57,139 nt of DNA from Nitrospirota bacterium (GCA_038059935.1 JBBTIN010000043.1:1-57139); one strand, 5' to 3'; positions 33,760-39,067 are shown, numbered from the stretch's first letter. Notes: generated by a model from the letters alone, not told the origin. Program-made: numbers and translations.

Positions 33760-34593
33760 TTAATCTTTTTTTTGATCGGTCTGTGCTTTCACAAGCCGAA
33801 GATAATTTTCCATGCTATGATCCTTGACCCCATCGGTTCCCAAATCGCCAAAATCAGCGATCCGCCCCAATACATGATCCATGAAGGTATTAAAAAATCC
33901 CATTTTTGATTTGTAATTTCCTAATACGTCAAAATAACGAAGCACTCCCAAGTGATGATACCGAAAGGGTAGTGCCGGGGGAATCCTTGGAACGATGTCG
34001 TTATTATTCACAAACCGAAATGCTTTTCCATTCATTTCAATATCGAAATTTTTTGCAAAAGTCGAATCGCCTGTACGCGGTTGTCCAAAAGTGTAAAGGC
34101 CTTGAACGGGAAGATTTTCCGCTCTCACTCTTGCGGCGGCCAACGCGGCCAACGCGGCACCTAGACTATGTCCCGTAAACCATAACGACTTTTCTGGAAA
34201 ACCTAACTTAGAAATTGTTTCTTTCACTTGCGCCCATACAAGATCAATCCCACTGTTAAATCCATGATGCACTTTGCCATTAAAAGGGCCGGCGATCAAT
34301 TTCATTTTTAGATCGGTTACCCAATCCTTGATTTTATTGGACTCTGTTCCGCGAAACGCGACCAACACCAGTTTATCGGTGCTCATTACAAACGCCTGTG
34401 TCTCTTTGTTTTCGATGAACTGGAACTGCTCGATACCCCAGACCCCTTTGATTTGGGCTGCAATTTTGTTTTCATCGCAATAGGCCAGATGGGATGCCAT
34501 CGCGCAGGCGTATGCATTGGTCCAATCAAAAAGCGTTGTTGCCGCGTTAAAGTTAAAGGTTGTGCTTACAAGGTTTTTATTTAATTCTGTCAT
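33760..34593 (-). CDS. class 3 (fungal-type) lipase family alpha/beta hydrolase
   Basis: Nucleophile elbow GHSLGAALA, Asp block NNNDIVPRIP and His block KDHSMENY. I place the start at ATG 34593 (SD AAGGAG 7 nt upstream). The track ORF starts at TTG 34599. It is convergent with flgL, only 7 bp apart. Confidence 0.85.
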   Translation of the reverse strand: MTELNKNLVSTTFNFNAATTLFDWTNAYACAMASHLAYCDENKIAAQIKGVWGIEQFQFIENKETQAFVMSTDKLVLVAFRGTESNKIKDWVTDLKMKLIAGPFNGKVHHGFNSGIDLVWAQVKETISKLGFPEKSLWFTGHSLGAALAALAAARVRAENLPVQGLYTFGQPRTGDSTFAKNFDIEMNGKAFRFVNNNDIVPRIPPALPFRYHHLGVLRYFDVLGNYKSKMGFFNTFMDHVLGRIADFGDLGTDGVKDHSMENYLRLVKAQTDQKKD

Positions 34594-34622
34594 TTTCAAA
34601 CTCCTTCTTTATAATCAGTGGG

Positions 34623-34707
34623 TCTCGTGAATGAGACGTTTTTTGCGACGTCTACTGATCCCTTAAAGGGGCACTGATGAGACAGTGTGTACGCCTCATT
34701 CACGAGA
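34623..34707. promoter_or_regulatory. 13-bp inverted repeat pair in the lipase leader / candidate operator
   Basis: TCTCGTGAATGAG (34623-34635) is complementary to CTCATTCACGAGA (34695-34707). The distal arm lies in the 17-nt spacer of a possible minus-strand sigma-70 promoter, TTGACA (34714-34709) and TACACA (34691-34686). Confidence 0.5.
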
Positions 34708-34734
34708 TTGTCAACGGGCGGGAAGTGCCTCTTT

Positions 34735-35010
34735 CTATTTTTCTGATCCAGGGAGTTCCCCCGTGTCGAGAGGCAATTTGGGATTGAAAATAATAATTCC
34801 CATGGTTCCCGGCCACCATGGCCAAGGTTTCTGAAATTTTCCGGGTAAGCGGAGGCTCAAATCCCCTTCCAAGTCAATCTTGGCAACTTCCCGTAACACG
34901 ACCGACCGAATTTCTAAATCAATTCTTTTCTCAACTTCCTTTGATAACTTAATGTTACCAAAGTCAACGACAAAGCGGCTTCCCGCTATTTTTTTCTCAT
35001 TTTTCAGCAT
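34735..35010 (-). CDS. hypothetical protein (91 aa)
   Basis: ORF with SD GGAAAGGAAAA upstream of ATG 35010. It overlaps the upstream gene by 14 nt. Trp/Pro-rich C-terminal part (KPWPWWPG). I recognise no family. Confidence 0.5.
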   Translation of the reverse strand: MLKNEKKIAGSRFVVDFGNIKLSKEVEKRIDLEIRSVVLREVAKIDLEGDLSLRLPGKFQKPWPWWPGTMGIIIFNPKLPLDTGELPGSEK

Positions 35011-35413
35011 GATGATTTTCCTTTCCTGTTGTTTGTTCACCCACCATTAAGTCGGTGACGACAAAGGGACAGACGAAACAAGCGGATTCCCCATTTTGCG
35101 CATACCAACGACACTGCGTTCGAATCGAACAGTCTGGAAGATGTTTGCCGGCGTCAACAGACTCGATGACCTGGTCAATAACGCCACACCGACTTCCTGT
35201 CCATTGTTTACAGGATCCCTCAACGCAGGGGCCTCCAAAGCGAAACCGTTTTTCCGGTGTTCGCCCCTCATGGGCAATCTGCACAAATTCTTCGTTGATA
35301 ATGACTTTATCGCTAATGAAAGAAACTGCTCCATCCGCCTGAACCATACCAAGCAAAATGGCACCCTTCTGACACCGCGAACTTGGACACAAAATTGGGC
35401 TATGATCCGACAT
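34997..35413 (-). CDS. hypothetical cysteine-rich protein (138 aa, 9 Cys)
   Basis: SD AGGAGGG upstream of ATG 35413. Cys pattern: CX4C, then CX4CX7C, then CX5C, then CX2C. I recognise no family. Confidence 0.6.
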   Translation of the reverse strand: MSDHSPILCPSSRCQKGAILLGMVQADGAVSFISDKVIINEEFVQIAHEGRTPEKRFRFGGPCVEGSCKQWTGSRCGVIDQVIESVDAGKHLPDCSIRTQCRWYAQNGESACFVCPFVVTDLMVGEQTTGKENHHAEK

Positions 35414-38781: not shown

Positions 38782-38878
38782 TCGTTTGTTTTGTAGGATT
38801 TAAACATTTCATTTTTATTTCCTTTCTTTATGTAAAGAGAACTGCAACCATCATTAACCAGCACTGCACGATAACTAC

Positions 38879-38895
38879 AGCAAAAATCATGTCAA
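38879..38895 (-). promoter_or_regulatory. candidate promoter (copy 2): degenerate sigma-54 box or sigma-70 -35
   Basis: The minus strand reads TTGACATG-attt-TTGCT. The -12 TTGC is perfect but the -24 GG is GA. Alternatively, TTGACA-N16-TATCGT reads as a sigma-70 promoter. Confidence 0.4.
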
Positions 38896-39038
38896 CTTTA
38901 TGAACACACCAATCTTTATGAAAATTAAACGCGTAATCTCATTTATTGATGATGGAATAATTTATTTTAGATTTTTTTATGAGAGAGAAAAACGAAGATG
39001 ATTTTATTCTAAAAATAAAACAAAATGAGAACAGATCA

Positions 39039-39052
39039 GATACGGTCGTATC
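39039..39052. promoter_or_regulatory. near-palindrome, copy 2 of the candidate UAS/operator
   Basis: GATACGGTCGTATC, with one mismatch from perfect dyad symmetry, centred about 153 bp upstream of the copy 2 -24 position. Confidence 0.45.
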
Positions 39053-39067
39053 GGAACGGATAATATT

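Follow-up and report, generated by a model that had tools for sequence, protein, structure and literature searches.

The window analyzed here is the whole 57,139-nucleotide stretch of DNA from a Nitrospirota bacterium (GCA_038059935.1 JBBTIN010000043.1:1-57139), and this report concerns five open reading frames (ORFs), A to E, that occupy its minus strand at positions 33760-39067. ORF calling found the five frames where a first reading made from the sequence alone (the sequence-only reading) had placed them and at the sizes it gave, with flgK/flgL on one side and proC on the other. They are gene A (36637-38781; 714 codons), gene B (35725-36630; 299 residues if read from ATG 36624, which follows the stop codon of A by 12 nt), gene C (34997-35413; 138 residues), gene D (34735-35010; 91 residues, overlapping C by 14 nt) and gene E (33760-34599; 279 residues). 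A regulatory-type module of about 200 bp occurs twice on the same strand, at 38871-39066 in the proC-A intergenic region (copy 1) and at 35463-35676 between B and C (copy 2). No signal-peptide-like or transmembrane N-terminus was seen in any of the five ORFs, as had been said of the large protein A. Judged from comparative sequence evidence, genes A and B appear to form an autonomous two-gene system that is conserved across at least ten phyla and is the real unit of the island.

Protein A terminates in a zincin-like domain (~residues 511-714; 36637-37251) whose HExxH codons lie at 37009-37023. The motif reads IHELTHVWQ, and HELTHxWQ is nearly invariant in 31 homologues. Comparison with the VgrG2b effector domain (PDB entry 6H56) gave E = 7e-5 with phmmer and E = 4e-9 with the family profile, over ~140 residues that include HELTHVWQ, and the AlphaFold2 model of the domain has predicted local distance difference test (pLDDT) values of 80-95. 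The match to the eCIS_core model PF13699 was below threshold (12 bits versus 22). The C-terminal domain of A is thus a member of the HExxH zincin family and homologous to the VgrG2b/Tpe1 metallopeptidase. VgrG2b C-ter/Tpe1 is a type VI antibacterial zinc metallopeptidase of P. aeruginosa that is toxic only in the periplasm and whose substrate is unknown, and domains of this type are often annotated DUF4157 (PMC6899460). The A-type zincin domain is also found near the C-terminus of two giant proteins with 8-9 PKD repeats (P0420, 2137 residues; P0435, 1946 residues), where it is presumably used on secreted or surface proteins. A near-invariant arginine at the boundary between the helical and zincin regions was considered as a site of cleavage by B and rejected; the residue is also conserved in VgrG2b and is therefore probably structural.

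The zincin domain is preceded by two helical regions. The N-terminal domain (residues 1-135; 38377-38781) is basic (pI 10.1) and is modeled by AlphaFold2 with pLDDT of 70-92; family-profile searches returned no family match for it, and conserved motifs are seen in the homologue alignment. The central region (residues 136-510; 37252-38376) is an array of long helices, all-helical in the AlphaFold2 model, with a 29-residue periodicity manifested by autocorrelation peaks at lags 29 and 58. It is acidic (pI 4.05) and hydrophobic (grand average of hydropathy, GRAVY, +0.59), and contains two transmembrane-like stretches. Its length differs among homologues, with an insert of ~250 alignment columns in P0040-42. 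A Foldseek search with the full-length model, which is dominated by long low-confidence helices, yielded no significant match in PDB or BFVD.

The 5' end of gene A is frameshifted in the window. The original start codon, an ATG at 38812 preceded by an AGGAA ribosome-binding site, opens a reading frame of only 18 codons (38756-38812, minus strand) whose peptide begins MKCLNPTKQTIDFS and reads MKCLNPTKQTIDFSNQRR up to the stop. DNA alignment with a 95%-identical metagenome contig, L084, revealed a 1-nt insertion near codon 15 (~38768; TCTAACCAAC versus TCT-ATCAAC in L084), which puts ATG 38812 out of frame, so that the intact frame restarts at TTG 38781 or ATG 38751; the main frame restarts 5 nt past the stop of the 18-codon ORF. 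The intact start in L084 translates as MKCSNPTKQTIDFSINDVESMGAQ, and the N-termini of homologues read MK..K..IDFS.ND. The insertion may have arisen in the assembly or by a recent inactivating mutation; alternatively, the arrangement may reflect translational coupling.

Protein B matches the Pfam family Peptidase_C25 (PF01364) with E = 6e-6 and 26.2 bits against a cut-off of 23, which bears out the clan-CD protease-type His/Cys arrangement noticed earlier. The catalytic codons are those of His171 (36118-36120) and Cys205 (36016-36018), and the motifs YxGHGRxxGWxGY and SxxC that include them are 100% conserved in 76 B sequences. With a family-level match and an invariant His-Cys dyad, B is very probably an active clan-CD peptidase. 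Like the C25 peptidases, which include the gingipains and the type IX sortase PorU, B has an H-G and C dyad ~34 residues apart and the C-terminal R..G(D/N)P motif, although only its C-terminal half aligns with the C25 model. In contrast to gingipains and PorU, B comprises only 299 residues with no extra domains, scores 14 bits against the PorU model (cut-off 420), and belongs to a family that occurs in phyla without the type IX secretion system (T9SS) and is present in Actinomycetota and Proteobacteria. As B lacks a signal peptide, an Ig-like domain and a T9SS C-terminal domain, it is predicted to be cytoplasmic.

Metagenomes and Bacteroidota (Chitinophagaceae, Flavobacteriales, Kriegella aquimaris) contain homologues of A with 61-81% identity. 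Remoter relatives were detected in 80 species-representative genomes of at least 10 phyla, with members in Bacteroidota, Actinomycetota, Acidobacteriota, Gemmatimonadota, Nitrospirota, Pseudomonadota, Desulfobacterota-type Geobacter/Pelobacter, Campylobacterota, Chloroflexota, Verrucomicrobiota and Krumholzibacteriota. A family scan of 1.84 billion representatives detected 138 clusters with a limit of E <= 1e-30 and 465 with E <= 1e-10. In 77 of 83 related loci, A is directly followed on its own strand by a homologue of B; two of the remaining six are cut by contig ends, two are partial A matches and two are without a detectable B. Genes C, D and E accompany the A-B pair in none of these 83 loci, where the genes beyond A-B are of ordinary kinds and differ from locus to locus. 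The neighborhood conservation that the sequence-only reading had suggested checking therefore holds for the A-B pair and fails for the five-gene set, which recurs in L084 only. The constituent domains all belong to known superfamilies; the architecture, a toxin-type zincin protease with a dedicated partner protease, widely conserved, appears to be new. Among curated families of the Pfam and NCBIfam type, none covers A, C or D, and neither the A-B pair, alone or with the ketosynthase neighbors considered below, nor DUF4157 together with C25 was found described in the searchable literature. Cultured carriers include Kriegella aquimaris DSM 19886, Terrimonas sp. NS-102, Rivibacter subsaxonicus DSM 19570, and Cellulomonas and Kocuria spp., which makes the pair experimentally tractable.

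Genes C and D appear, from their own distribution, to be a separate and widespread small-protein pair. Protein C has the nine cysteines reported for it, seven of which are invariant and two near-invariant, is cytoplasmic by prediction, and belongs to a family of more than 160 clusters at 47-66% identity. Profile searches, which gave domain matches for A, B and E, gave none for this pair: neither C nor D matched Pfam, NCBIfam, PADLOC or PHROG, and the confident AlphaFold2 model of C (pLDDT 83) found no PDB fold by Foldseek, nor did a PDB profile search. In D, ~45 N-terminal residues are conserved and the C-terminus is variable. A D-like small gene always stands beside the C homologue, upstream or downstream (L084, L085, L087, L091, L094), in contexts that are otherwise unrelated, such as a trp operon in Pyrinomonadaceae and a ferritin/two-component region in Thermoleophilaceae. 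Distant C homologues are encoded on plasmids. On a Spirosoma oryzicola plasmid (L098, 1-4393), the homologue neighbors a double-glycine-leader peptide, LTDDALDAVSGG, and an NHLP-type bacteriocin export ABC transporter, and on a Streptomyces plasmid (L099, 1-5349) it is located inside a nonribosomal peptide synthetase-like cluster with AMP-binding, phosphopantetheinyl transferase and ATP-grasp genes. These contexts hint at a possible link between C-D-type pairs and peptide natural products.

Gene E encodes what appears to be an ordinary class-3 lipase, in agreement with its first description. It matches Pfam Lipase_3 (PF01764) with E = 1e-32 and 113 bits against a cut-off of 22, and a PHROG esterase/lipase with E = 7e-27; the translation contains GHSLG, NDIVP and DHS. 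The D-E intergenic region (34600-34734) contains a 17-bp inverted repeat (34623-34639 and 34691-34707) whose stem encloses two small hairpins; the predicted RNA fold has -42 kcal/mol with z = -3.9 and no Rfam match. This element may serve as terminator, attenuator or protein-binding inverted repeat, setting the lipase apart from C-D.

The origin of the arrangement is best seen in L084, a contig of 9.35 kb and the only other one with all five genes. It is 95% identical to window positions 34132-38825 (4.7 kb), with the same order A-B-C-D-E, and its flanks differ: a CHASE2 histidine kinase and an uncharacterized 267-aa gene lie upstream, a DUF1360 gene lies downstream, and no flagellar genes adjoin the cassette. 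The position of the cassette beside flgL is thus incidental. The lipase of L084 (7479-8415) is truncated just after GHSLG, where homology to the window stops and an unrelated 177-aa ORF follows, a recombination breakpoint inside the gene. Within the window, the island has a GC content of 42-46% versus 47-49% in the flanks, which are chromosomal and housekeeping in character: on the flgL side rng, rodA, mrdA, mreBC, purM, asnB, the ccm operon, a motB-like gene, flgF...flgI, flgN, flgK and flgL, and on the other side proC, two BBP2 porins, amtB, glnD, waaA, acs, selO and purU. The best named matches of the window CcmF are Nitrospiria/Nitrospirae metagenome-assembled genomes (61-82% identity), which place the host very probably in Nitrospirota, whereas the closest named relatives of A are Bacteroidota (61-73% identity). 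Since 83 loci with varying neighbors carry A-B but not C, D or E, C-D occurs alone elsewhere, and the complete set recurs only in L084 with different flanks and a breakpoint in the lipase, the five genes are very likely a lineage-specific mosaic of three independently distributed modules, A-B, C-D and E, with A-B as the conserved pair. The lower GC content, the housekeeping flanks and the discordant relatives of A and CcmF argue in the same direction, and the interval is best read as a horizontally acquired accessory island in a housekeeping region. The single five-gene cassette postulated by the sequence-only reading is not supported by this comparison.

The repetition of the module, noticed in that reading, is far beyond chance: positions 35468-35676 and 38876-39066 share 79.6% identity over 211 columns (BLAST E = 6e-52). 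The two copies form a direct repeat. On the coding strand, each begins with a palindrome, which is followed by an AT-rich stretch with the invariant block TCTCTCTCATAAAAAA and then by a -24/-12-type box, 144-162 nt downstream of the palindrome. The palindromes, GATACGGTCGTATC at 39039-39052 in copy 1 and GATACGATCGTATC at 35649-35662 in copy 2, are 14 bp each and of the type GATAC-N4-GTATC. The box before C (TGGCATGATTTTCGCT, 35471-35486) has correctly spaced GG and GC and lies ~58 nt 5' of the ATG of C, whereas the box before A (TGACATGATTTTTGCT, 38879-38894) has GA in place of the canonical GG of the -24 element; both are oriented alike, ~50-60 nt ahead of the start codons. As had been reported, the flgF operon of this genome carries a related -24/-12 box as well (TGGCATCACTATTGCT, 24971-24986, 63 nt ahead of flgF), which would fit control of the flagellar rod/ring genes by sigma-54 in the host.

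The L084 counterpart of the module before C is 87% identical to the window copy, with one mismatch in the palindrome. Directly before A, L084 has no module; a third, more diverged copy (1952-2232 of L084) precedes the 267-aa gene, absent from the window, that heads the A-B operon there. This copy has TGGCAC-N5-TCGCT, a better -24 element, and the palindrome GATAAC-N4-GTTATC, so that in both genomes both units lie behind the same kind of module. The two genomes thus contain three or four copies, all in the same orientation ahead of operons; the box, TTG.CA...T.GCT, and the palindrome type are the parts conserved across them, and GG-N10-GC is found in the copy before C and in the L084 copies. 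This conservation, together with the placement of both units behind the module in both genomes, is the strongest argument for a shared enhancer-dependent promoter rather than a neutral repeat. In enhancer-dependent sigma-54 promoters, exemplified by PspF-, NtrC- or VasH-controlled operons, a palindromic upstream site and a GG-N10-GC box are likewise separated by AT-rich DNA; unlike in such systems, an activator is not among the window genes and one copy has GA at -24. We infer that the module is an activator-dependent, enhancer-type sigma-54 promoter. Co-regulation of the two units, part of the original claim, is plausible on the evidence of the module copies before both units and in L084. On the plus strand, an ATG in each window copy (35561-35614 and 38971-39024) opens the same short frame, MREKNEDDFILK, which has 18 codons in one copy and continues antisense to proC in the other; the frame is probably not coding.

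Taken together, these observations are accommodated by an explanation that we favor tentatively, with somewhat less than even confidence. The island units would have been placed, in the window lineage, behind copies of one enhancer-type sigma-54 module, and a single enhancer-binding activator would probably switch them on together through the shared copies. Protein A would be made in the cytoplasm as a pro-protein, and its hydrophobic, acidic 29-residue helical repeats would constitute a membrane-active carrier or scaffold that helps the zincin domain reach an extracytoplasmic target in the envelope, which is consistent with the periplasm-only toxicity of VgrG2b. B would be the dedicated cytoplasmic protease that processes or activates A. 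The periodicity, positive GRAVY value and transmembrane-like windows of the repeat region, and its weak likeness to tape measure and phasin proteins, speak for a carrier role. The mechanistic part, by which B processes an envelope-targeting pro-protease A, is doubtful when taken by itself: cleavage of A by B, the membrane activity and the site of action are all deduced.

Several observations weigh against this explanation. The box region before A (38895-38868) also reads as the sigma-70 elements TTGACA-16-TATCGT and could be a sigma-70 promoter, the same copy carries GA at -24, and a gene for an enhancer-binding protein was not found among the window ORFs. Expression of gene A may be poor in this genome owing to the frameshift at its 5' end. 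The AlphaFold2 confidence is low for the center of A, and this region is strongly conserved, with many invariant W/Y/G/R residues, which is more in keeping with a particular fold or an enzyme than with a generic carrier. A cleavage site for B in A was not identified. Both A and B lack a signal peptide and any known domain for secretion or trafficking, which leaves the exit of a periplasm-acting domain from the cytoplasm unexplained. Lastly, a simple model of a toxin and its maturase does not explain the frequent presence of a ketosynthase pair.

That pair, along with the phasin-like matches, suggests a lipid-related or cell-biological device, in which A would be a phasin- or apolipoprotein-like coat or scaffold on a hydrophobic inclusion or membrane domain formed with the help of the ketosynthases, and the peptidases would reshape this coat. 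A FabF-like ketosynthase and a small protein that resembles an N-terminal ketosynthase fragment follow B in 52-55 of 81 distinct loci (L009-L081; for example L015 14007-15550 and L039 13916-15712). The catalytic Cys/His/His are visible and intact in the ketosynthases, whose top models are fabF and cispentacin AmcF; an acyl carrier protein gene is absent from the four-gene operon. The longer A homologue of L015 matches Phasin_2 (PF09361) with 50.7 bits (cut-off 24.9), while the window protein A scores only 12 bits with the phasin model TIGR01985; no polyhydroxyalkanoate genes were seen nearby. Weak matches to phasin, apolipoprotein and chlorosome-CsmB-like models occur in the A family, the helices are hydrophobic and amphipathic, and a lipase shares the wiring of the pair in the window. 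Against such a device, the window subfamily and 26 other loci are without the ketosynthases, the phasin-type matches may reflect composition only, and the sole characterized relatives of the zincin domain are toxins. The interpretation is judged quite unlikely. A faint precomputed match of some A homologues to PF27499 ('CsmB') was treated as compositional; the papers found for CsmB concerned chlorosomes, fungi and coal seams only.

The toxin relationship leads to a further interpretation, that A is a polymorphic-toxin-like antibacterial effector, delivered by a type VI secretion system (T6SS), an extracellular contractile injection system (eCIS), vesicles or lysis, with B or C-D as immunity protein or adaptor. 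It draws on the homology of the zincin domain to the T6SS toxin Tpe1/VgrG2b, on a patchy distribution suggestive of horizontal transfer, on the lipase effector also encoded beside vgrG2b in P. aeruginosa, and on the DUF4157-type domain, a core, toxin-associated domain of eCIS loci (PMC8213781). However, A homologues in 80 loci align through query residue ~697-704 and thus have the same C-terminal domain, where a polymorphic toxin would have variable toxin domains with matching immunity genes. There is no VgrG, PAAR, Rhs, LXG or other known trafficking domain in A, and no T6SS or eCIS genes were present among the scanned window ORFs or the inspected loci. B has an intact dyad and is conserved as A is, unlike immunity proteins; no periplasmic PA0261/Tpi-like immunity gene was seen, and the family extends to monoderm Actinomycetota. 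Of the toxin proposals of the sequence-only reading, a toxin character is partly supported, by the zincin homology of A, and a polymorphic-toxin module with an immunity gene is not: the partner is a conserved protease. As a whole, the delivered-effector interpretation is improbable.

Equally improbable is a two-gene anti-phage defense of the abortive-infection type, in which the tape-measure-like region of A would sense or mimic a phage component and the proteases would be the effectors. Clan-CD proteases do serve as effectors in several defense systems, and A-B forms a small autonomous operon with patchy occurrence across phyla whose central region has PHROGs tape-measure matches (E 1.7e-8 to 1e-5). 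These are weak and could be compositional. PADLOC v2, run on the five proteins, returned only two marginal ZorA matches to the helical region of A (E 0.008-0.02) and nothing for B-E, the inspected neighbors are housekeeping genes rather than defense islands, and a tblastn search of 50,697 phage genomes and 72,556 plasmids recovered nothing similar to A. A defense function would also leave the ketosynthase pair without an explanation.

A different alternative concerns the wiring only. The ~200-bp repeat would be a dispersed repeat, a mobile remnant or the carrier of a small RNA or ORF, and co-regulation of the two units would then fall away. Identity among the copies is only ~80-85%, the one before A has a degenerate -24 element, both contain the plus-strand frame, and the region directly before A in L084 is without the module. 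The module and the -24/-12 box are absent upstream of A in the close relatives L003-L008, L079 and L097, which indicates that the module is specific to the window/L084 lineage. This alternative is nevertheless distinctly improbable, given that all copies are in the same orientation at a similar distance from start codons and that the box and palindrome type are the best-conserved blocks, even in the third and most divergent copy of L084. A reading of the two window copies showed no terminal inverted repeats, the 57-kb window has no further copies, and an Rfam search of 33000-40200 found no family, its one sub-threshold snoRNA match being judged a chance result. A metagenome-wide scan for the pattern (palindrome, N140-170, box) gave two matches, both within coding genes of unrelated organisms and, by estimate, about the number expected by chance; the scan missed the L084 copy because of the mismatch in its palindrome.

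Export of a Zn protease, a Cys protease and a lipase as three co-regulated effectors by the flagellar export apparatus or another non-Sec route, a proposal of the sequence-only reading that is compatible with the adjacent flgL, the flgF box, the lack of signal peptides, the shared module and the weak resemblance of E to type III and other secreted effector lipases (XopAP, Rlip), is very improbable, as A-B is conserved in Bacteroidota, Actinomycetota, Acidobacteriota and other phyla, of which Bacteroidota and many others to our knowledge lack flagella, the L084 cassette is not beside flagellar genes and has a truncated lipase, and the three hydrolases are not found together in the 83 loci.

The most far-reaching form of the favored explanation is that A-B, often with the ketosynthase pair, is an undescribed mobile system in which a VgrG2b-type zinc protease is self-carried by its repeats and matured by a C25-like protease, and is here placed under sigma-54 control with C-D and a lipase. 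We regard this form as unlikely; if true, it would represent a secretion-system-independent toxin or autolysin, or a new lipid-linked device of the cell envelope. Should the processing mechanism hold, a VgrG2b/Tpe1-type domain, so far studied as cargo of type VI secretion (PMC6899460), would be used in a second, self-contained context of delivery or activation, always alongside a cytoplasmic protease of the gingipain family and in diderm and monoderm phyla alike, and A-B would offer a new genetic handle on what this toxin family cleaves, as well as a possible route by which a large helical protein moves a catalytic domain into or across a membrane without a known secretion signal. The locus also illustrates that a pattern of three hydrolases behind one promoter can be a lineage-specific assembly, and that comparative context is needed to find the real unit.

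Elsewhere in the window, two tandem paralogous BBP2 (OmpL-like) porin genes (40157-41287 and 41409-42428) lie directly upstream of amtB and glnD and may form a nitrogen-related outer-membrane uptake unit. The window starts with a LuxC-type acyl-CoA reductase gene (138-1430). A cluster at 11278-17150 encodes an asparagine synthase, an AMP-binding enzyme, an NAD-synthase-like protein and an uncharacterized 363-aa protein, and looks like a small biosynthetic or amidation operon.

Among known systems, a purely functional analogy to A-B is offered by the MARTX and large clostridial toxins, which are matured by an associated clan-CD cysteine protease domain (CPD). In both cases, a toxin-type domain is genetically coupled to a clan-CD protease that could release or activate it; in contrast to the CPD toxins, B is encoded by a gene of its own and belongs to another family (C25, not C80), and its relationship to A is deduced. 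With phage tail tape measure proteins, which are its best PHROG and BFVD matches, A shares long, helical, partly hydrophobic repeats of variable length. These matches are weak (none significant in BFVD), A is not a member of a tape measure family, no tail genes lie nearby, and the center of A is highly conserved rather than fast-evolving. The DUF4157 'PVC-metallopeptidase' of eCIS loci (PF13699) belongs to the same HExxH zincin superfamily as A and is linked to long linker regions and toxins. Its domain is N-terminal to the toxin domains in eCIS proteins, whereas the zincin domain of A is C-terminal, and genes for an eCIS sheath, tube, baseplate, spike or AAA ATPase are absent from the Pfam-scanned window ORFs and from L001-L003, L015 and L097. 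VgrG2b/Tpe1 differs from A in its genetic setting. A is not fused to VgrG or PAAR and has no DUF2345 domain, the Pfam-scanned window ORFs include no T6SS genes, and the gene downstream of A encodes a C25-like peptidase rather than a PA0261/Tpi1-type periplasmic immunity protein, so that A-B does not resemble a T6SS effector-immunity pair. The zincin domain of A is moreover preceded by ~500 residues of helical domains and its family reaches into monoderm phyla. Within the catalytic domain itself, A and VgrG2b/Tpe1 (6H56) share both the HE(L/M)THVWQ motif and the lead-in GR.L...E...A..VFG.S(I/L)DY.

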